DNA of 18,320 nt, from IMG/VR virus record IMGVR_UViG_2728369556_000002. One strand, given 5' to 3'. Position 1 is the first letter of the stretch. Each line of letters opens with the position of its first letter. Under the pieces are notes generated by a model. The model searched no databases. It was given only the letters and a program-made list of their open reading frames with translations, and was not told where the DNA came from. The stretch is from a virus (Duplodnaviria; Heunggongvirae; Uroviricota; Caudoviricetes). Position numbers and translations under genes: made by a program. Positions 1 to 18,320 of the stretch are shown here, piece by piece.

Positions 1-357
1 GACGAAGTTCACCGCATCCAGAAAACGGGCGTAAACCTTACGCCGGACCACCGTTCCGCCGACCAGACTCTGCATATCTTCCGCCATCCCGGTGACCATG
101 CCGTACAGATTAGAGACTTTAAGCGTTGGCCTTGCACTGGCTCCTTTGCCGTTCATCTCAAATCCGCTTCCCTGAATGGGATAAGCCTGATACTGCCGCC
201 CCTGCCAGGTGACTGGTTCACCTTTTTCGTTCTGCTCATTACAGAAGAAATAACGATCTCCGCCGACCTCTGTCAGATCAATTTCCCAGAGCACGACCAG
301 CGCGGATTGCTCCGTTTTAGTGCACTCATTGAGTGTTTCCTGCTGTATATCCTGCAT
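1..357 (-). CDS. L: minor tail protein L, N-terminal part only (gene runs past the window start)
   Basis: Minus-strand ATG at 357-355 overlaps the stop of the upstream M gene (TGATG). Translation MQDIQQETLNECTKTEQSALVVLWEIDLTEVGG... closely matches the N-terminus of lambda gpL as I recall it. Absent from the ORF track because it has no stop inside the window. Confidence 0.85.
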   Translation of the reverse strand, partial: MQDIQQETLNECTKTEQSALVVLWEIDLTEVGGDRYFFCNEQNEKGEPVTWQGRQYQAYPIQGSGFEMNGKGASARPTLKVSNLYGMVTGMAEDMQSLVGGTVVRRKVYARFLDAVNFV

Positions 358-713
358 CAGTGAGTGACCTCTTCAAAGGTACAGTTAAAATCGGTATACA
401 TGGCATTATCCGAAATGCTCCACTCCCTGCAGACAACCCGGACAGTCCTGTTGTGTTTTGGCGGACGCCACAAAAAAGCACGAATCCCGGCATGACGGGA
501 TAAAAAACTGTCCAGCGCGGCACGGGAATATTCATCTGTGACACGAAATACCGGTTTAAACGTTTTCAGATCCGCATTCAGACCACCAGCCCGTCGCTGT
601 TCATATCCGTCACCAAACTTTACCGTAATAACTGATGGCTTTCGTGTCGTCTCCATCCCCTCACGGGGGATCCAGTTAAAAACTTCAGGCTCAGGCACTG
701 TACAATCCTCCAT
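357..713 (-). CDS. M: minor tail protein M
   Basis: ORF track 357..743. The FGDGY...FLW motif region resembles lambda gpM. Start is more likely the ATG at 713 or the GTG at 698 (GGAGG 8 nt upstream) than 743, because the tape measure gene ends at 691. Confidence 0.8.
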   Translation of the reverse strand: MEDCTVPEPEVFNWIPREGMETTRKPSVITVKFGDGYEQRRAGGLNADLKTFKPVFRVTDEYSRAALDSFLSRHAGIRAFLWRPPKHNRTVRVVCREWSISDNAMYTDFNCTFEEVTH

Positions 714-3700
714 CCCGACGCGATGACTGCATAATTGACACAACCCTGCTGTCGATCAGATCCACCAGTCCCCTGGCTGAGCGCGCATCTATCTCGCCAT
801 TGCTCCCTTGATTCTGAATGCTGATGTGATACACGGGAGAATAAACAAATCCACCGCCACCATTCACATCTCCAATGGCCCTGACCCCAAGAGAGCCGTC
901 CGCTGCCCGTGTCAGTGGCATGATTGCTTCAGGCCCGGCCTCGCCCATCAACCCGGCCCCCTTCGCAAAAGCAAAATACGTCGGTGTATCCACAATAGTG
1001 TTACTGTAAGCACTCAGATTTGCCGATGTGTAAACACCACCTTTTGCGTTTGCCACTGCCCCCGAAATCCATCCGCCGACCGTACCAAGCCACCCTCCGG
1101 CACCGGAGAGTGATTTCAGTCCGTTAACAATGGCTGCATTCATCAGAATTTTTGAAACTTCCCGGAGAACTGAACTCCCCCAGTTCCTCCAGTCCACAAC
1201 ATTTCCGGCCAGTGCATCGGAAATATTTGATACCAGCCCGTCCATAGTGGAAACGACAGCATCTGCCGCCTGCGAAGCATAATCGGTGGCACTGTCTGCC
1301 CAGTTGGTCAGCCCCTCCTGGAGTCCTGCATTCCAGTTATTACGTAAAGCATCGGCCTTTGCATAATAATCCTGCTGATCGCTGAGACGCTCTTCCAGAT
1401 ATTTTTTATTCAGTTCTTTCTCCTGTTTCCACAGGGCTTCTTCAATTTCTCCGGCCTGATACTGTCTCAGCAGCTCGTTATTTTTCTGCTCAAACTCATG
1501 CCGGATACTCCACATTTCCTGGAGTCGTTCACGCATCCGTGAGCCTTCACCATATCCCAGTAACTGCGCGTCGTTAGACGCCCGGGTACTGGCATTACTG
1601 TCCGCCAGGCTGCTTTCATACGCAGCAAGCTGCTCACGAATCTTTTTCTGGTCGATGAGTGCTGCATTCTGCAAAAGCGTTTTTTTCTGCGCTTCTGACA
1701 GGGTTGATAATTCGCCCTGACTGACCTGATATTTCATCTTAGCCAGTTCAGTATTCTGCCCTGCCAGTGCTATCTGTTCTTTTTGCTGTTTAATCAGCCG
1801 TTTATAAATATCTTCTGTTTTTTCCGCTTCGGTCTTTTTATGCGCTTTGGGTTTATTTGCCTGGTTATTTCGCCAGGCATCCAGTGAGTTATTGATATAA
1901 TTCTGTCTGGCTGTCTGATACGCCTCTCCCACAAAGCCAAGATCATCCGCAGCATAGCCCAGTCGAGCACGCTCACGCGCTTCCCCCTTAAGGCGGGACA
2001 GAGCCAGTTCGCGCTTGCTGTTATTCAGTGCGGTCTGCTGTTTATCATCCAGGGTTGCCTGTGGTAGCCGTAACGGTACATTCACCAACCCCTGTCGCTG
2101 CTGAAGTAATTCATTACCAAGCCCAAGAAGGCGATTAAACTCGGTATGCTGCCCATTCATGATCAACAGGGACTGATACGCTTTGTTTTGTTCCGCCGCC
2201 TGTTGACGGATCAACGCAACCCGCCGCTCCTCCAGCCCGGCAAGCACATCCTGAATGGATTGCGCTTTGCCCTGCATTTGTGTGAGACGGGACTGTTCAA
2301 CTGCCAGTTGATTTGTTGCTTCTGCAAGCCCTTCTGTGACTGTTTTTACCGACGTCATGTGGTTAATCATAAAACCGTTATCGGTTGTCCAGCCCGGGTT
2401 TGCCAGCACATACTGATAGCCAGCAATTTTTTCCTGTAAGGATTTAATCTTACTTTTCTGCTCGTCAATTAACCTGTTTTGCTCATCAAGTGCCTGCCGC
2501 GTCTTTTCCTCATTATCTGACGCTTCAGGAAGCGACATTGCCGACGTTTTCTGGCGAATTTCGTCGATTGTTGCGGCATACTGGCGTGCAGATTCTCTGG
2601 CCTGCTCCTGATTCTGATACATCGTGTACCAGGCCGTCGCCCCCAGCATGACGAGTCCCGGCACACCACCAACCAGCCCCAGCGCACCACTTAACAGACG
2701 ACTCCCCACTGACGTGACAGTATTCAGCGTTGTCTGCGCCGCTGTTCTGGCCGCAATATTACGGGTAAGTGACGCCTGAGCAGCTGTCAGCTTCGCTTCT
2801 GCTGCGGCCTGCCTTTCGGTACCGCGAGCAGCAACAACCGCCTGTTGCGCACGATAAACCGCCGCACGCGCTCTGGCGGTTGCTATCTGTGTCCCCCGAA
2901 GTTGCGCTTCAGCAAGAGCCACTTCGTTTCTGGCTGCAGTAATTAATCCGGCAGTTGCAGATCCAGCAGACGACGCCATATTGCCAAAATATCGGGCTAC
3001 CCCGACGGCAACCAGTGCGCCAGCTGCAGCAGCCACGGTATCAATATTGTCTGCAACACCATTCAGCACACCGGAGAGTGTCTTTGTCACTCCGCTTGCC
3101 TCGTTCGCACCACCAACCCAGGCCATAAAGGCGTTTTCAACTTTGGTTGCAGAGGATGAAACAGTATCAGGCATTGCTGCATATTCATCACGCAACGCCC
3201 CAAGCTGACTAATCAGTGCAGGAACAACCTTATCGGCGGTCAGTTTTCCGTTATCCGCCATGGCCTTCAGATCCTTACGGGCAACCCCCATTCCCGCAGC
3301 CAGCGCACGAATAACACGATCGCCGTTCTCATTCACCGAGTTAAACTCTTCACCGCGCAGCACTCCCTGCGCCAGTGCCTGACTGAACTGCATGATCACC
3401 GAACTGGCTTCTGCTGTACTGGCACCGGATAATTTCAGGCCCGTGGAGATCGCCTCGGTGACTTTCAGTACCTCCTCAGAACTGTAACCATACTCCCGCA
3501 TGGAAGCTGCAGAACGGGCAAAAAGGCTGGCGTTATCAGAAAACGCCGTCCCCGTTCTCTGGCTGATCGCCATTAATTCACGCTGTGATGCCTGAAAATC
3601 ATCACTGGACTGTGAGGCCTGCTTCAGACGGGCATTTACTGAATTCCACTCATCGGCGAGAGAAATAAGATGACCGGTAGCAAAAGCCCCGGCAAATGCC

Positions 3701-3924
3701 CCCGCCATATTCAGTGCCGAAGATTTAGCTGTATTTATCTGATCCGTCACTTCTGCCAGTGCACGCCGCATTTCACGGGAGGCAGCAGCAGACTGTTGGC
3801 CTCCGTTCTGCATGGTGCGGTAGTAATCCTGCCCCATACGCGAAGCCCGGGAGATCTCTGACTGGAATGACCGGGAGTTTGCCGAGATTTTAATAATCAG
3901 TTCACGTAATGTCGCCACACTCAT
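691..3924 (-). CDS. H: tail tape measure protein (gpH-like)
   Basis: 1077-aa ORF with Ala/Gln-rich coiled-coil composition, located directly after the G/T chaperone pair and before M and L. Confidence 0.93.
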   Translation of the reverse strand: MSVATLRELIIKISANSRSFQSEISRASRMGQDYYRTMQNGGQQSAAASREMRRALAEVTDQINTAKSSALNMAGAFAGAFATGHLISLADEWNSVNARLKQASQSSDDFQASQRELMAISQRTGTAFSDNASLFARSAASMREYGYSSEEVLKVTEAISTGLKLSGASTAEASSVIMQFSQALAQGVLRGEEFNSVNENGDRVIRALAAGMGVARKDLKAMADNGKLTADKVVPALISQLGALRDEYAAMPDTVSSSATKVENAFMAWVGGANEASGVTKTLSGVLNGVADNIDTVAAAAGALVAVGVARYFGNMASSAGSATAGLITAARNEVALAEAQLRGTQIATARARAAVYRAQQAVVAARGTERQAAAEAKLTAAQASLTRNIAARTAAQTTLNTVTSVGSRLLSGALGLVGGVPGLVMLGATAWYTMYQNQEQARESARQYAATIDEIRQKTSAMSLPEASDNEEKTRQALDEQNRLIDEQKSKIKSLQEKIAGYQYVLANPGWTTDNGFMINHMTSVKTVTEGLAEATNQLAVEQSRLTQMQGKAQSIQDVLAGLEERRVALIRQQAAEQNKAYQSLLIMNGQHTEFNRLLGLGNELLQQRQGLVNVPLRLPQATLDDKQQTALNNSKRELALSRLKGEARERARLGYAADDLGFVGEAYQTARQNYINNSLDAWRNNQANKPKAHKKTEAEKTEDIYKRLIKQQKEQIALAGQNTELAKMKYQVSQGELSTLSEAQKKTLLQNAALIDQKKIREQLAAYESSLADSNASTRASNDAQLLGYGEGSRMRERLQEMWSIRHEFEQKNNELLRQYQAGEIEEALWKQEKELNKKYLEERLSDQQDYYAKADALRNNWNAGLQEGLTNWADSATDYASQAADAVVSTMDGLVSNISDALAGNVVDWRNWGSSVLREVSKILMNAAIVNGLKSLSGAGGWLGTVGGWISGAVANAKGGVYTSANLSAYSNTIVDTPTYFAFAKGAGLMGEAGPEAIMPLTRAADGSLGVRAIGDVNGGGGFVYSPVYHISIQNQGSNGEIDARSARGLVDLIDSRVVSIMQSSRRDGGLYSA

Positions 3925-3932
3925 TCTCCGGA

Positions 3933-3955
3933 CGAAAAAAAACCGCCGAAGCGGT
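3933..3955 (-). terminator. intrinsic terminator-like hairpin between the GT and tape measure genes
   Basis: Minus strand reads AACCGCTTCGGCGGTT followed by TTTTTTTT (plus 3933-3955), immediately upstream of the H ribosome-binding site. Confidence 0.4.
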
Positions 3956-3964
3956 TATGTTGAC

Positions 3965-4255
3965 TCACTGAGACACTATTAAAAGCGCGTTTTCCAGTCC
4001 GGCAAATGGATCTGAAGCGCCTTCTGTCTGCTCCTTCTCCCACTGAAGAAGCGCATCATTCAGTGACACTTTGACCCCCTGCGCACCGTAAATAGCTGAA
4101 ACAATCTGGGCAGCCCGGAAATCAGCCCGTTCGTCCCCCAGCGGGCTGAACCTGTCAAATTCTGCCCACATCATGATTTCTGATGCGGACATTTCCCGGC
4201 GTAACTCTGACAATGTGCGCCCCATCCTGAGCGCCAGCATCATCAGAAAACGCAT
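3965..4255 (-). CDS. T: tail assembly chaperone T segment, probably made only as a G-T fusion by -1 frameshift
   Basis: The 96-aa ORF lies in the -1 frame relative to G. The -1 frame is open from the A8 slippery run at the end of G (4271-4278) into this ORF. Confidence 0.7.
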   Translation of the reverse strand: MRFLMMLALRMGRTLSELRREMSASEIMMWAEFDRFSPLGDERADFRAAQIVSAIYGAQGVKVSLNDALLQWEKEQTEGASDPFAGLENALLIVSQ

Positions 4256-4266
4256 CCCCGGAAGCG

Positions 4267-4638
4267 CTACTTTTTTTTAACCTCGCCGGCATCACTGATC
4301 AGTTCCAGAGACTGCCGAAGAAGCCGCGCATGCACCGGGCCATACACGGCAATCACCTGTTCACGATCATCCTCTGAAAATACGGGTTGCAGTCCGGTAT
4401 CACACAGAACATCAATGAACAGTTCAACATCTGCCTCCAGATTTCGGCGGGCGCGCTCCGCAACGGATAACGGTGTCTCATCATCTTTTGCTTTAACGAT
4501 CTCCTGCCAGCGCAACCAGGCTTCTGCAGAAGGTTCCCGTAACACAACCGTTGCTCCCTCCCATTCAGGCACATCAACGGTTTTATGGCGAAACCCCGAC
4601 ATCGTTGCCAGTGCCAGATTACGGATATTTTTAGTCAT
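4267..4638 (-). CDS. G: tail assembly chaperone G
   Basis: ORF track 4267..4653. Preferred start is the ATG at 4638 (MTKNIRNL...) with GAGGA 8 nt upstream. The gene ends ...GEVKKK-stop inside an AAAAAAAAG slippery run. Position between V and H. Confidence 0.7.
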   Translation of the reverse strand: MTKNIRNLALATMSGFRHKTVDVPEWEGATVVLREPSAEAWLRWQEIVKAKDDETPLSVAERARRNLEADVELFIDVLCDTGLQPVFSEDDREQVIAVYGPVHARLLRQSLELISDAGEVKKK

Positions 4639-4652
4639 CACATCCATCCTCA

Positions 4653-5357
4653 TTAACTGACGGTTACAGTGCAGGAAGTGGAGGTCACTTTGTTAACCGG
4701 GCTCGCTGAATCAGAAATCTCGCAGGTATACGCACCGGCATCACCGGATGCTGCTGATGCCTTACTGAACGTTGCCGCCGTCTGTCCGGAAACAGGAGAA
4801 CCACCTTTTTTCCAGGCATAAGAATAAGGCGGCACACCACCCACAGCCTCAACCGCCATTTCAAGTTTCGCTCCGGAAGCAACCCGCAGCGTGCTTTTTA
4901 AATCGACCTTCACTTTCAGCTGCTCTGTCGTCAGCACAGGCTTACCTTTCAGGCGCAGAGAAAACGTTGCAGCCACAACACCATTGGTTCCTGCAGACCA
5001 GGTATGCTGACGCACCTCTGCCATAAAGGTAAATCCGTTGCCTGACGGAAAAATAACTTTAAAGCCATACGTGGTGTCATTGTCATAGGCACTGCGCAAC
5101 GCGTTCTGGGCAGCATTCAGATAAAAGTTGCCTGACATGGAAATCTCTGAAGCAGCCCCAAGACCGTTAATATTTTCCTGCTCAACAGAATACAGCGTGG
5201 TGACATCAATATCCTGCTTTTGTCCTGCGGTAAACTGCACCTCTTTGATTGTACAGCTCAGGCCAAGATAGCTGGCAGAATCCAGGGTTTCTGCTGTTAC
5301 CGGTGCAGACGAAATCATAATTTTCGTCAGTTGCGAACGCTCAAAATTAGAGGACAT
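4653..5357 (-). CDS. V: major tail protein (gpV-like) with C-terminal Ig-like domain
   Basis: 234-aa ORF with AGGAGA ribosome-binding site. The C-terminal ~90 aa (VPPYSYAWKKGG...AYTCEISD...) look like a Big_2-type Ig fold, as in lambda gpV. Confidence 0.88.
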   Translation of the reverse strand: MSSNFERSQLTKIMISSAPVTAETLDSASYLGLSCTIKEVQFTAGQKQDIDVTTLYSVEQENINGLGAASEISMSGNFYLNAAQNALRSAYDNDTTYGFKVIFPSGNGFTFMAEVRQHTWSAGTNGVVAATFSLRLKGKPVLTTEQLKVKVDLKSTLRVASGAKLEMAVEAVGGVPPYSYAWKKGGSPVSGQTAATFSKASAASGDAGAYTCEISDSASPVNKVTSTSCTVTVS

Positions 5358-5363
5358 ACTCGT

Positions 5364-5385
5364 CTCCTGAAAATAAAAAAACCCG
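5364..5385 (-). terminator. intrinsic terminator-like hairpin upstream of the major tail gene
   Basis: Minus strand reads CCCGCCGCTGGCGGG followed by TTTTTTT, then the V ribosome-binding site. Confidence 0.4.
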
Positions 5386-5417
5386 CCAGCGGCGGGTGGG
5401 TAAAATCATTAATGACC

Positions 5418-5762
5418 TCAGGCTATTACCTGGAATTCAAGCGTGGCTCTGCTCAGACGGGAGTCAGGATCATAACCCTGCGTTTTAGAAATAACGGAGG
5501 GTGCCAGTTTTCTTACCGCATCAAGCGCCTGCTCACGAATATTATCTGCGTCATCAGGTACTGTCGCCCAGACATCGATCTGCACGGTAATTCTGGATTC
5601 AGCCTGCCCATCAAGCACATCAGATACCGTGTCAGACACCACAGAAAACACCAGCCACGGCGGAGATACTGCAGGCTTTCCCTCCGTCAGCGGGACCACA
5701 TAAGGATAAACCTGTCCTCCGGCCAGCTGAGACAACAGGGAATACAGTGTGCCCTCCCTCAT
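5418..5762 (-). CDS. tail terminator protein (gpU position)
   Basis: 114-aa ORF whose ATG overlaps the upstream stop (ATGA), immediately before the major tail gene. Assignment is by position and size, with weak family recall. Confidence 0.6.
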   Translation of the reverse strand: MREGTLYSLLSQLAGGQVYPYVVPLTEGKPAVSPPWLVFSVVSDTVSDVLDGQAESRITVQIDVWATVPDDADNIREQALDAVRKLAPSVISKTQGYDPDSRLSRATLEFQVIA

Positions 5763-6205
5763 TTACTTAAGACCTCATCAATAGCCTGATTCATTCGCTG
5801 TATGGCAACCTGCGCCGCCAGCTCCTCTGTCGTATCGAAAGCCGGGCGAATGAATGGATGCGCGGGCATGTTTATCGTTCCCAGCTCCACAAAGCGCCAG
5901 TAAAATGCATTTCGGGGATCGCTGGCTTTCATGCTGTTATCACTGTTTCCGGTTCGCAGGTTCCGTCCGCGAATGTGGACACCCGAGATAATTTCCCCCC
6001 GACGCTTTGAACGCTGAGTGAGAACAACCACATTTTTCTTCAGTTTCCCGGTTCGCTCCGGCGCACGTTCAACAACTGCATCCCGCATAACTTCAGCACC
6101 GGCACGGGTGGCATCGCGCAGAACCTTATTGTTTTCTGCCCTGCTGAGCGTCTCCAAATCCCGTGCAATATCCGCCAGGCCGGAAAAATCAAGACTGAAA
6201 TCCAT
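5759..6205 (-). CDS. HK97 gp10-family tail completion protein (gpZ position)
   Basis: Contains the motif NAFYWRFVELGT...PFIRPA typical of the HK97 gp10 family. Likely start is the ATG at 6205 overlapping the upstream stop. Confidence 0.75.
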   Translation of the reverse strand: MDFSLDFSGLADIARDLETLSRAENNKVLRDATRAGAEVMRDAVVERAPERTGKLKKNVVVLTQRSKRRGEIISGVHIRGRNLRTGNSDNSMKASDPRNAFYWRFVELGTINMPAHPFIRPAFDTTEELAAQVAIQRMNQAIDEVLSK

Positions 6206-6945: not shown

Positions 6946-8163
6946 TTATTTGCCAGTGAGCGCCTTGATGGCTGCCACATCTTCCAGCACACAGTCAAAA
7001 CGATGGAAAGCCAGAAATGCCACCTGATCAAACTCAGCATAACGCTCAACCAGACGTTTCAGTTCCATATAAGTAACGCGGCGAATGATAAAGCGGTTGA
7101 AATCCCCCAGGAAAATGAATTTTTTTCCAGTACCAATCCCGTCAATAGCCTGATCAATAACATAAGGGATCCCCAGCACAGTAGCCGGCGTACCGCCTGC
7201 AATATCCGGCAGCCATAACGGGCGTTTCTGTCCATCCTCCATCTCTTCAATAGTCTGCAATGTGGCATCATTGAATGCCCAGCGGTATTTCGGCCCACCA
7301 CGATATGCCGGATCAATGGCATGTTTCAGGGCATTCATTTCTTTCCAGGTGAAAGCGGCAGAGGCTGCAGTCTGGATGGTTCCCGTCACCGACGCTGCCA
7401 GCCCTTTTGGCTGTAACGGTGATCCCGTTCCGGTCCCCTGAACCAGATATTTTGCCTCTCCACGACCAATACGCTGGGCAATACGGTTTGCCAGATAAGA
7501 TTCAATATCCACCCCACTGTCCTGGAGCAGCTCATTGGACACACGAATTATTTTTGATGACAGCTTTTTAGCCCCCAGAATAGCGGTCCCGAACGTCACA
7601 TCCTGTTCCGTTGCGGCTGTATTTTCCGCCAGCAGTTCGCCCTCTTCAGTCGTGCCATCAGACGTTGACCAGGTGATATCCTGCCCGGTTGATGTGGTCA
7701 GAAGTTGCGCCACACTGGCAATCCCGCCATAAGCCTTCATGGTGTCAATGATTTTGTTACGCATCTGCGTGGGCACCGTATATCCGCCCTGAGAATCCGT
7801 TGTTACACTCTGAGCCCGCAGTTCACGCATCAGATTACGCTCTTCAGCATTCAGTTCTGCAAATCCGGCACGCAGAAAACGGTTAAATGCCGCAGCACGC
7901 TTCTCTTCCACCGCCTTTTTCCCGTTCTCCGCCTCATTATTCTGGCGCTCTTCCGGCCCGGACTCATCCACATATGCCTGATCCTGACGGCGCAACTCTT
8001 CTTCACGGGCGATTTGCTCATCCAGCGCATCCAGCTCAGCTTTCGCCCTGTTCCACTCTGCCCGTTGCTCATCAGTCCATGCGTTATCACCAATTTTTTC
8101 ATGCAGTGCACGCATATCCTTTGCAATGGTGTTTCGTTTTTGCTTCATCTCATGAAGTTTCAT
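6946..8163 (-). CDS. major capsid protein, HK97 family, with N-terminal coiled-coil delta domain
   Basis: 405-aa ORF with a charged coiled-coil N-terminal ~120 aa followed by an HK97-like capsid body. Lies between the protease and connector genes. Confidence 0.92.
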   Translation of the reverse strand: MKLHEMKQKRNTIAKDMRALHEKIGDNAWTDEQRAEWNRAKAELDALDEQIAREEELRRQDQAYVDESGPEERQNNEAENGKKAVEEKRAAAFNRFLRAGFAELNAEERNLMRELRAQSVTTDSQGGYTVPTQMRNKIIDTMKAYGGIASVAQLLTTSTGQDITWSTSDGTTEEGELLAENTAATEQDVTFGTAILGAKKLSSKIIRVSNELLQDSGVDIESYLANRIAQRIGRGEAKYLVQGTGTGSPLQPKGLAASVTGTIQTAASAAFTWKEMNALKHAIDPAYRGGPKYRWAFNDATLQTIEEMEDGQKRPLWLPDIAGGTPATVLGIPYVIDQAIDGIGTGKKFIFLGDFNRFIIRRVTYMELKRLVERYAEFDQVAFLAFHRFDCVLEDVAAIKALTGK

Positions 8164-8177
8164 CGTCAGTAGTATCC

Positions 8178-8724
8178 TTATGCATTAAGAAGGGTCAAAA
8201 GGCGCTCACGCGCCATTCGTTCATTAACAGCTTTCTTCAGCGCACCACTCGCCCGCGCTTCCTGCCAGGCTTTCATTGAGCGGACACCGGAGTCTGCGTC
8301 CTGATAGGCCGGATATGTCACCGGGCTGACGTCATACAGACGAGAAATGCGCGTGATTTCCCGGATAACAATCCCCTCGTCGTCTTCATACCAGCTCTCT
8401 CCGTCACGGGCGACACGAAACGCGAACGAGGACTGGTTAATGTCACCACGCAACATTGGAGACAGCACCAGGTCACAAATAGTCGGAGTATCCGGTGCAA
8501 CAATGTCATAACGTAAACCGCGTTCATCCACCGACAATGACAATGTGCCGGCAGAACTTCGTCCGAGAATGAAATTAGGATCATGATTAAACAAGCCACG
8601 TACATCATCATTCAGTACATCATCAAAAGCCCCCGGCTTGATGATTTCACGAAATCCCCACAGAGGTTCTGAACGACTGTTAAATACCGAGCCATACCCC
8701 AGAATGTGGGTCGGGCATTATCAT
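8178..8724 (-). CDS. prohead protease (HK97 / S78 family) with an apparent frame break at the 5' end
   Basis: The protease frame is open from 8717 to 8178 (...ILGYGSVFNSRSEPLWGFREIIKPGAFDD...NHD...) but has no ATG, GTG or TTG before the TTG at 8594. The only ATGs with a ribosome-binding site (8724 and 8718) are in the +1 frame and stop after 14 codons. Confidence 0.75.
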
Positions 8725-8768
8725 ATTGTTCCGCCCGCACCTCCCCGCTGTAACAGCGCGTTTCACGG

Positions 8769-9995
8769 TCATTCATCGTTCTTTTCCTCTTTGCCTTTCG
8801 TATCTTTAAAGTTATTCAACGGATTTGCTGCATTTACGCTGACCAGCATTTCATCCAGACCGTCAACCGGGTTCATATCCTCAAATGCCCTGGCTTCATT
8901 CCGACTCATCCAGCCATCTGTAATGGCAAAGTGATAGAACTGCGCACGCTCCTGTGGGGTCCCACGGAGCAACCCCGTGAGGTTAAAACGAACGTAATAC
9001 CCGGCAGCCCGTTCTGTACGGGTAAACAGGCGACGGTTAAGCTCCTGCTCCCAGTTCGCAACCCAGGGCATCATCGTGTAGCGAACAAACTGAATCGCCT
9101 GCTGCGTAATATTCGAAAATGTGGCTTTTTCCAGGTCATTAATCATGTGCGCCGGGACATTAAAAATCCCTGCAATCATCGACCTGTTCAGCTTGGTCAT
9201 ATCAATGATCTGAGCATCCACCGGAGAAACTGTCAGAGCGCGGTAATCCAGTTGCGCAGGCAACAGCATGGTTTTATTTTCCTGGCTGCGAAGCGCTGTC
9301 ACCGCCCGCTGCCACATATTTTTAAGCCTGCCCCAGCTCTGTTCGTTCAGTTCATTTTTCACAGAAATAATACCGGCAGGACGGGCATTACCGTTAAAAA
9401 AGGCGCTGGTATACTGCTGGCCACTCATTCCCATACCAATGGTTTCAGCATGCTGCATGATCGGGCTCAGTCCCATTTTCTGATTGTTTCCCAGCGCCCT
9501 GATATGGATCATGTCGTCCGGACTTACCGCAAATGCACCCTCTTCGTTATACACCCCGTAAGTATGACGCCCACCGGTGTTAAGTAACGTGGTTTCCCAT
9601 GGCATACAGCATTCAAGGCTGGTAACCTCTCCACGACGATTACGTTTTACCCACGTATAACCATTGCCCCACCCCAGCACATGACGCTGCTTCAGTTCCC
9701 GCCACTTATAGCTGGTCTGCCAGGCATTAGGTTCATCATGAACGAGCCAGAACAACGGATGATCGCGTGCAGGCTGAACATGCTCATTCGTTTTTCGCAT
9801 CACATGCAGGGGCATCTGAGCCACACTGGATGAAATAACATAAATACAGGCATAGACAGCAGCCAGCTTCATGGATGTTTCCGGACTGACATACACATCC
9901 CGGGCAAAAATATTATCCGTCTCAGCGGCCTCTCCGGTTACCGGAACCGAGGGATTTTCCAGAGACTCACTGCGAAACAGAGCATCAAGAAGCAT
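8769..9995 (-). CDS. portal protein, HK97 family
   Basis: 408-aa ORF with AGGAGA ribosome-binding site, directly downstream of large terminase. Confidence 0.92.
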   Translation of the reverse strand: MLLDALFRSESLENPSVPVTGEAAETDNIFARDVYVSPETSMKLAAVYACIYVISSSVAQMPLHVMRKTNEHVQPARDHPLFWLVHDEPNAWQTSYKWRELKQRHVLGWGNGYTWVKRNRRGEVTSLECCMPWETTLLNTGGRHTYGVYNEEGAFAVSPDDMIHIRALGNNQKMGLSPIMQHAETIGMGMSGQQYTSAFFNGNARPAGIISVKNELNEQSWGRLKNMWQRAVTALRSQENKTMLLPAQLDYRALTVSPVDAQIIDMTKLNRSMIAGIFNVPAHMINDLEKATFSNITQQAIQFVRYTMMPWVANWEQELNRRLFTRTERAAGYYVRFNLTGLLRGTPQERAQFYHFAITDGWMSRNEARAFEDMNPVDGLDEMLVSVNAANPLNNFKDTKGKEEKNDE

Positions 9996-10142: not shown

Positions 10143-11900
10143 TCACAGAATTAACAGGTCCTCATCAGGATCAAGCGTGGACAGAAAGTCATTCACGCCC
10201 CCGCCATTTACCAGAAAGCGGCTCATGGCCGTAAAAAGCGCAACAGGGCCGTCGATTTTGGCTTCAGGCGTGGATTTATTCGGGAAGATGTTGTCGTTTT
10301 TGTCCGGTTTTACCGTAACGTTAGACATCATCCAGTTCATGACCGGATGATTGCTGTGATGGAAACGCCCGGCATAAACCAGTGATTCCGTTTCCTTCAT
10401 GGCCTCTGACAGATTGCGGACCGTCTGCGGAACCTCCACCAGCGGTATCCCTTCTTCAGCCAGTGCCAGGCTGAACTGCATTGCGCTCCACGGGTCAAAT
10501 CCCAGTTCCCTGAGGTTTTCACCGCCAATCCATTCCAGTAAGTCACTTTTTATCTGAGCATGATCGATAACATCACCATCCGTCAGGATGAGCTTATCCA
10601 TCTCCGCCCACTTCCGGTAAAGTTCTGCCTGCTGCCGCGAGCATCGCTCCAGCCGTCCTTCCGGAAGCCAGAATTTAAAATCAGCATGAACATGTCCGTT
10701 ATCGGTTCGCCAGAGTTTTGCCGCCGCACAGATATCAATCTTATGAGCAAGGTCGACGCCGACCCACATGGGATATGTTTTCAGCTCATGTTGTGGAGCA
10801 ATGTATTCGCACTTCTCCCACTTAATCATATCCATCCAGGCAGATTCGGCAGTGACCCACACATTCATGTGTTTGGTAAAAAAATTCACCCGCGCAGAGA
10901 CCTGCTCCTTCGCTTTTTTCGCCAGACGACGCAGATCATCCCAGCGTTTACAGATGCCCAGGCCAGGATTCGCTTTCTGCCAGACCGTTTCATCAAACGG
11001 ATCATCTCCCTCATCGAGCGTGTAAATGATCGCAAAGTAGGAGTCGTCTTTTACCGCGCCCTCCACGTCGCTGTTATAGCCTCGCAATACCTTAATGGCG
11101 TAATCGCGCTGCTCGTAGCAAATCCCTTCCTTGTTAAAGCCAGCCGTGGTGATGCCAAATAACAGAGACTGCAGACGGGCACCGGTTGCCGTTTCCAGAA
11201 CGTCCCACACGTCACGGGTTTTATGAGCATGCAGCTCATCAATAATGGCGCAGTGGATGTTCAGACCGTCCAGGTTGTTTGCATCCGAGGAAAGCGGTTC
11301 AAATTTTGATGCGCTCTGCTCCTGGTAAATCGCCAGCTTGTTGAAATCAAACAACCGCCCGAGTGTCGACCGGGCTTTTCTGACCATATTTTTGGCGTCT
11401 TCAAACACAATTCTGGCCTGGTCACGCGTGGTTGCGGCTGAATACACCTCAGCCCCGCCTTCACCATCTGCCCCCGTCATATACAGACCGATACCCGATG
11501 ACAGGGTTGATTTTGCGTTTTTACGGGCAACTTCGTTGTATGCTGTCCGGAACCGGCGCACCATCACCGGGCGTCCACTGCCATCGCTGCGCATGACAAC
11601 TTCCCCGGTTTCTTCATTCACCAGCGGAATGACAAAACCAAAAATATTAATGAGGATAAACACATGCCAGTCCATCAACTCAATGGGCTGACCTGCCAGC
11701 GCCCCTTTCACATGGGGTACAAATTTGTAGAAATTAAGGATGTGCTGTGCACGGGGTTCACTGAAATAAATCCCCCGCTCTTCGCCGTACTTCAGATCAT
11801 CAAGAAAACGCTGGCAGGCCAGACGGACAAATTCGCCAGCAACAATTTCTCCTGCAACAACACGTTCGGCGTAGCGGATCCCGTCAGCCACTTTTGCCAT
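10143..11900 (-). CDS. terminase large subunit
   Basis: 585-aa ORF whose ATG overlaps the stop of the small terminase C-terminal frame (TGATGG). Sequence character matches the terminase ATPase/nuclease family. Confidence 0.95.
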   Translation of the reverse strand: MAKVADGIRYAERVVAGEIVAGEFVRLACQRFLDDLKYGEERGIYFSEPRAQHILNFYKFVPHVKGALAGQPIELMDWHVFILINIFGFVIPLVNEETGEVVMRSDGSGRPVMVRRFRTAYNEVARKNAKSTLSSGIGLYMTGADGEGGAEVYSAATTRDQARIVFEDAKNMVRKARSTLGRLFDFNKLAIYQEQSASKFEPLSSDANNLDGLNIHCAIIDELHAHKTRDVWDVLETATGARLQSLLFGITTAGFNKEGICYEQRDYAIKVLRGYNSDVEGAVKDDSYFAIIYTLDEGDDPFDETVWQKANPGLGICKRWDDLRRLAKKAKEQVSARVNFFTKHMNVWVTAESAWMDMIKWEKCEYIAPQHELKTYPMWVGVDLAHKIDICAAAKLWRTDNGHVHADFKFWLPEGRLERCSRQQAELYRKWAEMDKLILTDGDVIDHAQIKSDLLEWIGGENLRELGFDPWSAMQFSLALAEEGIPLVEVPQTVRNLSEAMKETESLVYAGRFHHSNHPVMNWMMSNVTVKPDKNDNIFPNKSTPEAKIDGPVALFTAMSRFLVNGGGVNDFLSTLDPDEDLLIL

Positions 11901-11958
11901 CAGTCTCTCGCTTTTAAAAGCTCTGCCAGCGGATCAACATCATCCGGTCCGGCGGTAT

Positions 11959-12381
11959 TTACTTTCGCCCGGCTTGCCGGTGACATACCAAACTCTGCAA
12001 GCATCGCCCGAATCCGCTTCCAGGCATCAGCTTCATCGCAGCAGCCGGGTGTGCCTTGATCAGCACATCGCCATTCTGCGTTTCCGTGCGGTAGGTATAA
12101 CCCTCAACATCGAGTATTTCGCAGTGATGCCGGTATTCGGTGTAGGCTTCCACCAGTAACTCGAGCGCACGTGCATCGAGCTGAGAAATGATCCCTTCCG
12201 CATTCAGCTCTTCCGCCATTCGCCTGAACCAGTACTTCCCCTGCGCCCCTAAATGTTGCGGAATTTTAGGGAGACCTTTTTCATCCTTTTTAGCGGTTTT
12301 TTTGGAGTCTTTAACTGGCCGCTTTGAGGGGTTACCTCGTATCAAATGCAGGCGTGGCGGGGTTTTCGGGGGTCCAGACAT
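11959..12381 (-). CDS. terminase small subunit (P27 family), apparently frameshifted near the 3' end
   Basis: N-terminus MSGPPKTPPRLHLIRGNPSKRP... is typical of the P27 family. The expected C-terminus (DAWKRIRAMLAEFGMSPASRAKV...KARD-stop, overlapping the large terminase ATG) is encoded in a different frame from about 12010 to 11900. The span 12381..11900 is 482 nt, not a multiple of 3. Confidence 0.8.
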   Translation of the reverse strand: MSGPPKTPPRLHLIRGNPSKRPVKDSKKTAKKDEKGLPKIPQHLGAQGKYWFRRMAEELNAEGIISQLDARALELLVEAYTEYRHHCEILDVEGYTYRTETQNGDVLIKAHPAAAMKLMPGSGFGRCLQSLVCHRQAGRK

Positions 12382-12527
12382 AATCGATTTTACCTATCAA
12401 TCATTTAATCACATTCCAAAAAAAAGTTTTCGAACCTGCGGCGATGCGAGGAAAGGTCAGGCGGCGGTACTGAGCAGCAGGGTTGCAGAGATTTGACCTG
12501 CCCCTCCCCTACAGATGGGAACTGTTA

Positions 12528-12878
12528 TCAATTGAGGCGTTCGCGCGCTGTTTTTGCTTTATGACAGGGCCAGCACAGACTCTGCAGGTTACTGTCTGCA
12601 TCCGTGCCACCATGAGCTTTCGGAATGATGTGGTCCACAGTTCTGGCTTCAACGGCTCTCCCATTGCGCAGGCAGTTCTGACACAGATGATTATCACGCT
12701 TCAGTATGCGCGCACGTATGGCATCCCATTTCGAGCCATAGCCACGCTGGTGGCGGCTCAGTCCGCGTTGATGCTGTACCCATCCTTCGCCACGATGTTT
12801 ATCGCAGTAACCAGAACTGTCTGTGGTTGTACCTGCACATCCACGCTTACGGCAGGCGCGTGGGATTCGTGGGGGCAT
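12528..12878 (-). CDS. HNH endonuclease (terminase-associated)
   Basis: ORF track 12528..12977. Preferred start is the ATG at 12878 (MPPRIPRACRK...) with GGAG upstream. Contains Cys pairs and the motif VDHIIPKAHGG...N...LCWPCH. Confidence 0.85.
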   Translation of the reverse strand: MPPRIPRACRKRGCAGTTTDSSGYCDKHRGEGWVQHQRGLSRHQRGYGSKWDAIRARILKRDNHLCQNCLRNGRAVEARTVDHIIPKAHGGTDADSNLQSLCWPCHKAKTARERLN

Positions 12879-13403: not shown

Positions 13404-13697
13404 ATGAAAAAAATGTTGTTTTCTGCCGCTCTGGCAATGCTTATTACAGGATGTGCTCAACAGACGTTTACTGTTGGAAACAAACCGACAGCAGTAACAC
13501 CAAAGGAAACCATCACCCATCATTTCTTCGTTTCGGGAATTGGACAGGAGAAAACTGTTGATGCAGCCAAAATTTGTGGCGGCGCAGAAAATGTTGTTAA
13601 AACAGAAACCCAGCAAACATTCGTAAATGGATTTCTCGGTTTTATTACTTTAGGCATTTATACTCCACTGGAAGCGCGTGTGTATTGCTCACAATAA
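13404..13697 (+). CDS. bor: Bor outer-membrane lipoprotein (serum-resistance, Iss-like)
   Basis: MKKMLFSAALAMLITGCAQQTFTV... has a lipobox and is nearly collinear with lambda Bor as I recall it. On the opposite strand to the late genes, as in lambda. Confidence 0.92.
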   Translation: MKKMLFSAALAMLITGCAQQTFTVGNKPTAVTPKETITHHFFVSGIGQEKTVDAAKICGGAENVVKTETQQTFVNGFLGFITLGIYTPLEARVYCSQ

Positions 13698-13728: not shown

Positions 13729-14190
13729 CTATCTGCACTGCTCATTAATATACTTCTGGGTTCCTTCCAGTTGTTTTTGCATTGTGATCAGCCTCTCTCT
13801 GAGGGTGAAATAATCCCGTTCAGCGGTGTCTGCCAGTCGGGGGCTGGTTGCATTATCCACGCCGGAGGCGGTGGTGGCTTCACGCACTGACTGACAGACT
13901 GCTTTGATGTGCAACCGACGACGACCAGCGGCAACATCAGCGCGCAGAGTTTCATTTTCAGCTTTCGCATTGGCTAATTCTCTCGAGTACTTTGCATCGA
14001 GTGCAGCAACATCACGCTGACGCTGCTGCATGTCAGCGATAGTGGCGATCGCCTGCTTCAGCTCACTGACTTTTTTATCACGCTGTTCTTTGTAGGCGAT
14101 GGCGTTATCACGGTAATGATTGACCGCCCACGACAGGCAGACGATGATGCAGATAACCAAAGCATAAATAATCGCGGCGACTCTGCTCAC
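13729..14190 (-). CDS. Rz: i-spanin Rz
   Basis: Strong match to lambda Rz (...[25 protein letters not shown]...KYINEQCR). Probable GTG start at 14190 overlapping the endolysin stop (GTGA); the ORF track lists an upstream TTG at 14205. Confidence 0.92.
13788..13970 (-). CDS. Rz1: o-spanin Rz1, embedded in the +1 frame of Rz
   Basis: 60-aa ORF with lipobox (VVGC) and a proline run ([12 protein letters not shown]), as in lambda Rz1, lying entirely within Rz. Confidence 0.88.
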
Positions 14191-14720
14191 TGCTCTATCC
14201 CCCAACAGGCTAATGCGCTTTCCTGGTCACGACGAATAACCTGTCCATAGCAGTTATTTGAACGTATGCGGCAATCGCGCCCACCATCTTTTATCCACCA
14301 GCGAATCGCCTCGCATGCGCCCTTACGATCACCGGCATTCAGCCGCTTATAAAACGTCGACGGGAAACACTTACCGGGGCCAATGTTATAGGGACAGAAT
14401 GACGCTATACCCGCTTTTTGTGGTTCGGTCAGTAGTACTTTAATATTGCGCTCCACCCATGCCAGCGCCTTATCACGCTCAATGGCGTTGACCTGGTCGC
14501 ATTTTTCCTTCGACAGTTTCATACCGGGAAAAACGGGTTTTCCATCCACCATCGTGGCACCCCGACAGATGGTCCAGATGCCGGACCCATCGCGGTATGC
14601 CGTTGTGTGGTTACCTTCTTTTTCATCCAGAAACTGGTCGAGAATATCAGGCGCGGGCGCACCGACGGCAATCAGTGCCAGAACGGCAGCCGACAGGCCG
14701 TATCTGATTTTTGCGTTCAT
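14187..14720 (-). CDS. SAR-type endolysin (phage lysozyme)
   Basis: 177-aa ORF with an N-terminal weakly hydrophobic Ala/Gly-rich segment ([18 protein letters not shown]) followed by a lysozyme-like body, resembling signal-arrest-release endolysins such as phage 21 R. Confidence 0.88.
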
Positions 14721-14783
14721 GGATATTTATCAGGATTTATCGGTTTCTGCCCACGGACAGGTTTATCTGTTCCGGTCAGTGAC

Positions 14784-15134
14784 TTAAGGTTGTGATTCCG
14801 GAGGAGTCTTCAGAGAACCAGTAATTCTTCCCGGTAGCTTTCCTTTGTAGGTTATCCATACATTCTGCGCCTCTAAAATTACGGGGCGCTTTTCCGGCGA
14901 CTGCTCATCCCCTTCACATAACCCGGCAGCAACATCCAGGAAGACCTGTCTGATACTCATTCTGGCTGCTGCCTCATAAAACTCCAGCGCGGCACCTTCA
15001 ACACGGTCCAGCGAGATGTCCAGGTCAAAAATTTCACCGTCAAAGCGTTTTTTGTCCCGTAACGCTAAAGTTACCGTAACTTTATTCTCAAAATTGCGGA
15101 TCCCTTTCACAATCAGTTCATAGTTTTGAGTCAT
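14784..15134 (-). CDS. hypothetical protein between holin and endolysin (DUF1327 / YdfR-like)
   Basis: 116-aa ORF with GGAGAG ribosome-binding site, in the same position as ydfR in the E. coli Qin lysis cassette. Family assignment is from memory. Confidence 0.55.
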   Translation of the reverse strand: MTQNYELIVKGIRNFENKVTVTLALRDKKRFDGEIFDLDISLDRVEGAALEFYEAAARMSIRQVFLDVAAGLCEGDEQSPEKRPVILEAQNVWITYKGKLPGRITGSLKTPPESQP

Positions 15135-15138
15135 TGAA

Positions 15139-15354
15139 TTACTCTCCCCGTGCCGCCTTACGACGGTCCTCTCTGATTTTGAAATACAGGTTAGTCAGAT
15201 ATGTCAGCAGCCCAAACAGCAGACTCCCCAGCACGCCTATTGCCGCCCACTGAGACGGGGAAACCCTGTCCAGCAACTGCAGGAACCAGTAGCCCGTTCC
15301 CACCGCTGACGTGGTGTATGACACACCTGTTGTGATTTTTTCCATCTGGTCCAT
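15139..15354 (-). CDS. class II holin / pinholin (phage 21 S-like), dual-start
   Basis: ORF track 15139..15459. Real start is the ATG at 15354 ([10 protein letters not shown]..., 71 aa) with GGGAGA upstream. Two in-frame Met codons at positions 1 and 4. C-terminus ...[30 protein letters not shown]. Confidence 0.88.
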
Positions 15355-16110: not shown

Positions 16111-16446
16111 ATGAAGTGGATTGTAATTGATACAGTTATCCAGCCATCATGCGGAATATCTTTTTCAGTCATATGGAGTAAAGTAAAATTAATAATCTGG
16201 TATCAATCGGATGCTTTCTTACCTCCTGAAAGTATATTTACACTGACTCACACAGGTATCATGCTCAATAACAAAGTGCTACCTGTAACCATTTACAACG
16301 TAGTACCATTCAATAAAACATTCTGGAATTTAATCAAAAACAGCCAGGAATGCCCTACAAATACAGATAACGTATTGAATGAATGCTTTAATAACCGTTG
16401 CATTCTGCAAATATGTCCTTATGGACTAAAACAACAAAGTCCATAA
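16111..16446 (+). CDS. orphan low-GC protein of unknown function (111 aa)
   Basis: An uninterrupted 111-codon ORF in markedly AT-rich DNA, with AAGGAAG 6 nt upstream of the ATG. On the opposite strand to the late operon. No family recognised. Confidence 0.45.
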
Positions 16447-17479: not shown

Positions 17480-17555
17480 TGGTGGCCCTTGCTGGATTTG
17501 AACCAGCGACCTGGCGATTATGAGTCGCTCGCTCTCACCACTGAGCTAAAGGGCC
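17480..17555 (-). tRNA. tRNA with anticodon CAU, closest to tRNA-Ile2 (lysidine type); tRNA-Met not excluded
   Basis: 76-nt minus-strand sequence folds by hand into a cloverleaf: 7-bp acceptor stem GGCCCTT/AAGGGCC, D-arm GCTC..GAGC, anticodon loop CTCATAA, T-arm GCTGG TTCAAAT CCAGC, encoded 3' CCA. Closely resembles E. coli ileX as I recall it. Confidence 0.88.
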
Positions 17556-17698: not shown

Positions 17699-18247
17699 TT
17701 ACCTAGTTACCTTTTTTAACTGCCGCTCAGCCCATGCTTCTTCAATATCAAACCGGGTCACCAGCGCATCATAGAATTTCTTAACTGTTTTTTCCCATGA
17801 CGCGCGTGTTATCTGGTTTGTCACCTCGCATATAGCATTAAATGTCTCCGTTGATGGTAGTCTTTCATAGCCACGACCACCACAACGCTGGCAGTCTCTG
17901 ATAACAGGCATACCACGTTTTACCGACTCTTCACGATGAATGGCGACACCACGCCCACGGCAATCCTTACAGGCGGTGGAAACCTCACCCTTTCCGCCAC
18001 ACTCCGGACAGGCAACTTTTACCACCTCCCTGACTTTTTTCCATTCTTCCCAGTAAGACGAATACACACCTTTCGTACACTTTGCCCATACCGGCGGCTT
18101 ACCATCCGGATACTGGACCTTGTTTGTAAAAACTACGCTTTCAATAAATTTTTCCCCATAGCAACAAGGGCACTGCTTTTTACTCGCTGCGCTGCGGGCA
18201 TAATCCTCAAAAGCGTACGAATGCGTATTTTCATGAAAGGAGATCAC
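17699..18247 (-). CDS. Q: late antiterminator Q (lambda Q family)
   Basis: C-terminal half aligns by eye with lambda Q (YA.DY.RSAA...C..C.G.G...C..C.G.GY...P...W...VK..YDALV...VTR). Apparent GTG start at 18247, preceded by GGAAG. Confidence 0.85.
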   Translation of the reverse strand: MISFHENTHSYAFEDYARSAASKKQCPCCYGEKFIESVVFTNKVQYPDGKPPVWAKCTKGVYSSYWEEWKKVREVVKVACPECGGKGEVSTACKDCRGRGVAIHREESVKRGMPVIRDCQRCGGRGYERLPSTETFNAICEVTNQITRASWEKTVKKFYDALVTRFDIEEAWAERQLKKVTR

Positions 18248-18320
18248 TCAATAACTTCCATCGAGATCGGGTAATAACATTTGAACAGATCGCTGAATAA
18301 CATCGATGGAGATCACTTTT

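Follow-up and report, generated by a model that had tools for sequence, protein, structure and literature searches.

The small terminase gene (terS) of the prophage described here is read in two frames, and the locus thus raises the question of whether the prophage itself has lost a packaging gene or whether a base was lost on the way to its published sequence. The whole stretch of DNA that was analysed (18,320 nt, hereafter the window) is the late region of an E. coli lambdoid prophage with an HK97/phiP27-type cos packaging module. Its layout was carried over from the annotation of the identical AR_0162 record, corrected for indels, and comprises the following features:

1-6200: tail genes.
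6946-8163: major capsid gene.
8178-8776, minus strand: pseudogene (599 nt) of an HK97-family prohead protease, in which a run of C4 is reduced to C3 at about 8716, in codon 22.
8769-9995: portal gene.
10143-11900, minus strand: terL, large terminase, 585 aa, intact, with TerL_ATPase and TerL_nuclease domains.
11900-12381, minus strand: terS, P27-family small terminase gene, 482 nt here as against 483 nt in all relatives, in two frames.
12457-12466, minus strand: cos-equivalent position between HNH and terS, which aligns to the annotated 10-nt cos-site of phiP27 and reads CGCCGCCTGA here.
12528-12878, minus strand: HNH endonuclease gene of the HK97/phiP27-type packaging module, upstream of cos and terS.
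13404-13697, plus strand: iss (increased serum survival), an iss/bor-type (Bor-family) lipoprotein moron between HNH and Rz.
13729-15350: Rz, lysozyme and holin genes.
16111-16446, plus strand: iraM, an anti-adapter moron gene on the strand opposite to the late region.
17480-17555, minus strand: tRNA gene with anticodon CAT.
17699-18220, minus strand: C-terminal fragment of a Q-type antitermination gene, interrupted at about 18221/18222 by ISEc12.

A partial DUF1737 pseudogene and hypothetical pseudogenes lie close to iraM. The tRNA is called tRNA-Met by ARAGORN and tRNA-Ile by PGAP in the identical relatives; with its CAT anticodon it is presumably of the lysidine-modified type.

On the minus strand the ATG at 12381 opens an ORF of 140 aa that ends at 11959, and its product (frame 0) consists of 117 native residues followed by 23 out-of-frame residues. 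Shifted by one base, the sequence reads ...DAWKRIRAMLAEFGMSPASRAKVNTAGPDDVDPLAELLKARD and then reaches a TGA stop, which overlaps the terL ATG by one base (the shared A at 11900), so that the coupled arrangement named in the preliminary description of this DNA is indeed present. The parts of the gene are distributed as follows:

12031-12381, minus strand: native N-terminal 117 codons (M1-K117), Terminase_4 profile positions 2-66.
12030-12031, minus strand: site of the deletion, where the GG of AAG/GCT has been reduced to a single G and codon A118 is destroyed.
11959-12030, minus strand: 23 codons with which the frame-0 product ends out of frame, LMPGSGFGRCLQSLVCHRQAGRK, and the TAA at 11961-11959.
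11900-12028, minus strand: second frame, comprising the 42 codons of the genuine C-terminus (D119-D160) and the TGA; Terminase_4 profile positions 69-97.

Alignment to E. coli M217 gives 521 identical bases and a single gap, at which M217 has AAGGCT and the window AAGCT; in codons, ATG AAG GCT GAT becomes ATG AAG CT GAT, and on the plus strand CAGCCTTC becomes CAGCTTC. The intact terS of the relatives is 483 nt long and encodes the 160 aa of WP_001333563.1 ('phage terminase small subunit P27 family'), of which residues 119-160 are identical to the D119-D160 that can be read in the second frame only. The split of terS by one missing base is thereby confirmed as sequence. The suspected deletion of 1 nt, which leaves a span of 482 nt, is verified by the gap to M217 and by the length of the relatives, and alignment to intact P27-family terS genes places the indel at codon A118. 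The frame split had therefore been seen correctly, and only its position, given as about 12015, was slightly off, because the true site (12031/12030) lies slightly upstream.

That the gene encodes a P27-family small terminase, as had been proposed, is borne out by two profiles (PF05119 and TIGR01558) and by WP_001333563.1. The 140-aa frame matches Pfam Terminase_4 (PF05119) with 48.4 bits over positions 2-66 of 98, the 42-aa fragment of the second frame matches it on its own with 27.7 bits over positions 69-97 of 98, and the repaired, intact protein reaches 89.7 bits over positions 2-97 (gathering score 24.7 bits). TIGR01558 (sm_term_P27) is split likewise, into positions 2-75 and 77-114 of 116, with 68.2 bits for the 140-aa frame and 107.5 bits for the repaired or intact protein (cut-off 45.6 bits). 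The 140-aa frame thus lies above the curated cut-offs of the family. The similarity in the second frame is not due to chance, since the 42-aa fragment passes the gathering score alone and continues the profile where frame 0 leaves off. The position of the gene, directly upstream of terL and downstream of HNH and cos, is likewise that of a P27-family member. A continuous ORF over the whole P27-family domain, which the window does not contain, is found in M217, AR_0162, strain 164 and the homologues: all 31 aligned TerS proteins (153-165 aa, 58-96% identity) are encoded in a single frame. Their alignment reveals that the most conserved block of the protein, K-A-D-A-W-K-R-I-R-A-M-L-x-E-F-G-M-T-P-A-S-R, is situated just past the break, and that K122, R123, R125, M127, L128, E130, F131, G132, M133, P135 and R138 are invariant in the 31 homologues.

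The comparison of the whole window with its closest relatives puts this lesion into a wider context. In BLAST alignments with E. coli AR_0162 and strain 164, the 18,320 nt of the window correspond to 18,322 nt, without a single mismatch and with two gaps in all; the same two gaps appear against M217, whose match stops at window position 18221, and positions 1-6198 are identical. The gap outside terS is a second private deletion:

12477-12478, minus strand: loss of a further single nt, also private, by which CCCTGGCTG turns into CCCTGCTG; the site falls within a Dcm motif (CCWGG, here CCAGG).

Its minus-strand junction reads CCCTG/CTG, and it is located about 12 nt upstream of the cos-equivalent position, in the non-coding block between HNH and terS that is nearly invariant between the window prophage and phiP27. 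The two deletions are 447 nt apart in a window of 18.3 kb, for which the chance is about 0.05 (0.048), and both share the plus-strand context A-N-CAGC[C]; a pair of random deletions would agree in the run and 4 flanking bases with a probability of ~0.0024. The second deletion removes a C from the CC of CCAGG, and such Dcm motifs make up only 1.2% of the window positions.

Both 1-nt deletions are private to the window. A megablast search with positions 11880-12400 against 5,426 complete E. coli genomes matched 938 records, the best of which aligned 522 subject with 521 query nt at 99.8% identity; the terS deletion was absent from all 938, and none of them was identical to the query. The second deletion (12478/12477) was likewise absent from the 640 matching E. 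coli complete-genome records, with 97 versus 96 nt in the best match. Exact 40-mer scans of contigs from genomes, viruses and metagenomes detected neither deletion, whereas the intact terS 41-mer, used as a positive control, was present in 17 viral contigs; an index of 153 billion gene positions lists no gene for the 140-aa product.

Some public assemblies break at the same terS codon (loci L006 at 1010-1188, L007 at 3105 and L008 at 819). One protein (P0011) diverges past K117; it is encoded on a short (1.2-kb) metagenome scaffold in which terS is joined past ...ATGAAG to a side-tail-fibre-like sequence. Another (P0013) stops at A118, which is a contig end, and the last letters of two Illumina-type contigs are ...GATGAAAGC (A118). 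Partial TerS proteins end also past residues 100 and 126. The coincidence of these breaks with the deletion site probably results from chance or from forks in assembly graphs, and the A118 point may be a mosaic or such a fork.

The discrepancy between the window and its relatives can have several explanations. The pattern of the differences, which suits an error in a long-read consensus better than two separate real mutations, leads us to consider it likely that the terS deletion is a consensus error in the source assembly and not a biological change. One G at 12031/12030 would have been lost through a sequencing or assembly error, and the real gene would probably be the intact 160-aa ORF of all relatives, translationally coupled to terL. 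In real divergence within E. coli, substitutions are commoner than indels, or at least as common. Two deletions without any substitution in such a close clone therefore suggest a systematic error process, and it is the second private deletion only 447 nt away, the context shared by both and the 0 substitutions in 18.3 kb that render an assembly indel likelier. The alternative posed by the preliminary description, an assembly indel or an inactivated packaging gene in a cryptic prophage, was thus sound, and the balance inclines to the former.

A known process of this kind acts on Dcm motifs, in which ~70% of nanopore consensus errors in Enterobacteriaceae are found when default models are used (PMC6591954). 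The lesions of the window resemble these CCWGG errors in being private single-base deletions without accompanying substitutions, in sharing their context and in that one of them lies inside CCAGG; they differ in that the terS deletion is situated outside the motif, ~10 nt from the nearest CCWGG (CCAGG). Several points speak against an artefact. The GG that was reduced to G is no long homopolymer, a Dcm motif encloses just one of the deletions, and a prophage that has already lost its function would tolerate a genuine, neutral frameshift in terS. The effect of the shared context is, moreover, not deterministic, since the window contains 73 further CAGCC/GGCTG sites, all intact. We also considered whether polishing might have introduced the error at the borders of a repeat that a second prophage has in common with this one; this is unsupported, since the segment is present only once in close relatives.

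The prophage is cryptic or defective regardless of terS, because it has inherited a frameshift in the protease gene and a Q gene that is split by ISEc12. The protease lesion is present at 100% identity in M217, AR_0162, Ec-050, DDG206, B20127 and others, where PGAP labels the gene 'frameshifted', and other strains possess an intact 632-nt version of the queried segment. This recurrence in many independent assemblies, together with the intact state elsewhere, identifies the protease frameshift as a genuine inherited lesion, unlike that in terS. The end of ISEc12 (IS21-family) fills positions 18222-18320, the final ~99 nt. In AR_0162 and strain 164, whose match extends to the window end, ISEc12 stands between one Q fragment and the other, and Q is intact in M217. 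Inactivating lesions in essential genes are hence inherited across independent assemblies, as is characteristic of a cryptic prophage.

Alternatively, the terS deletion might be a real, very recent and strain-private -1 frameshift, that is, a further step in the pseudogenisation of a prophage that was cryptic before. The resulting TerS would be devoid of its conserved C-terminal third and of the coupling to terL. This explanation is credible, since a terS frameshift would be neutral in a prophage that is already dead, but we regard it as the less likely one. With the protease frameshift and the split Q already in the lineage, terS would be under no selection, and the removal of the most conserved block of the family would be a clear loss of function, both of which accord with a real event. 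However, the lesion is private to one assembly, and it is accompanied by the second private deletion 447 nt off in the same context, with no substitutions in 18.3 kb. In addition, the protease lesion occurred in a C4 run, but neither of these two sites is a run prone to slippage. Whichever of the two explanations is correct, consensus error or private neutral pseudogenisation, both are ordinary and the phenomenon is already known.

It is very improbable that both deletions are real and arose simultaneously, as footprints of error-prone repair (e.g. Pol IV-type -1 frameshifts in short G:C runs) after a break at cos made by the prophage's own HNH/terminase. The deletions do flank the cos-equivalent position, one ~12 nt off and the other ~430 nt off on the opposite side. 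If this were true, the packaging site of a defective prophage would be a local mutation hotspot that wrecks its own packaging module.

Still less credible is the idea that the two frames are joined into a full-length TerS by programmed -1 frameshifting of the ribosome or by slippage during transcription. A -1 shift restores the frame arithmetically (482+1 = 483), but a codon-by-codon reading of 12111-11959, the ~50-codon overlap of the frames, revealed no frame-0 heptamer of the slippery type X XXY YYZ, a GG does not constitute a slippage tract, and every relative is single-frame, so that the two-frame arrangement is not conserved; with neither a slippery site nor conservation, we reject it. 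That the 140-aa product is the native form and the likeness in the second frame coincidental, the case that the preliminary description had set against its own reading, has nothing in its favour beyond the existence of the ORF and is ruled out by the profiles (27.7 versus 24.7 bits for the 42 aa of the second frame), by the identity to WP_001333563.1 and by the 31 single-frame homologues; we attach virtually no probability to it. Equally negligible is the possibility that the element is a satellite, or an island dependent on a helper, and can do without a TerS of its own: no support was found for this earlier suggestion, the window is a complete lambdoid late region (lysis, HNH, terS, terL, portal, protease, capsid, connectors, tail) of a full-size prophage that encodes head, tail and lysis functions itself, and the same terS is intact in relatives.

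Taken at face value, the sequence predicts a dead TerS that lacks the conserved C-terminal block and is uncoupled from terL. Ribosomes would stop at the TAA at 11961-11959, 59 nt upstream of the terL ATG, and the TGATG coupling would consequently be lost if the sequence were literal; the Shine-Dalgarno-like element of terL (GAGAG) is weak. If the deletion is an artefact, as we think likely, the assembly carries residual single-base deletions and its other 'pseudogenes' have to be distrusted; if it is real, it adds one more neutral lesion to a prophage without a working prohead protease or late-gene antiterminator. Either way, the lysogen is predicted to be unable to release infectious particles of this phage. 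The terS gene is accordingly no proper evidence of the cryptic state, for which the inherited protease and Q lesions provide solid evidence.

The structural role of the lost part can be approached by a model and by analogy. The AlphaFold model of TerS is of moderate quality (pLDDT 66 overall, core ~80), and the break falls at the start of its third helix (residues 112-130, pLDDT ~80 there). Searches with phmmer and hmmsearch found no relatives of TerS in the PDB, the matches to Nop10 at E ~0.5 being due to chance, and a Foldseek search of the PDB with the model (pLDDT 66) returned nothing significant, with HK97 TerS (8pop_B) in 39th place at E = 2.9 and TM 0.33-0.41. HK97 gp1, in turn, has no match to Pfam Terminase_4, and hhalign gives a probability of 0.2%. 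An assignment of the window protein to the HK97-type TerS (PDB 6Z6E / 8POP) is therefore rejected, given no detectable homology in sequence or fold, and the two are functional analogues only.

The packaging module nevertheless resembles that of HK97 (gp74 HNH, cos, gp1 TerS, gp2 TerL) in that an HNH gene lies beside cos and is followed by a TerS of ~160 aa and TerL. In HK97, Arg128 in a C-terminal helix of TerS contacts cos DNA in a sequence-specific manner, and cleavage at cos is stimulated by gp74, the HNH protein (PMC11331095). By analogy, loss of the C-terminal third of TerS would abolish DNA recognition. Downstream of the cos-equivalent position, at 12410-12456 on the minus strand, the window reads GAAAACTTTTTTTTGG, with a T8/A-tract resembling that of the TerS binding site in HK97, 15-29 bp from the cleavage point in cos; this region may be a candidate TerS recognition site.

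The resemblance is closest to the P27-family TerS itself (WP_001333563.1; L35 of the Stx2e phage phiP27). The terS DNA in the window matches the WP_001333563.1 gene in all but one base, and it shares with phiP27 the order HNH - cos - terS - terL as well as the overlap of the terS stop with the terL start. It differs in that its ORF is split past codon 117, by which the profile match is broken across frames. Compared with the cryptic lambdoid prophages of E. coli, which decay stepwise by frameshifts and IS insertion, the prophage shows the same course, with no unusual feature; a real terS lesion would be the latest in the series.
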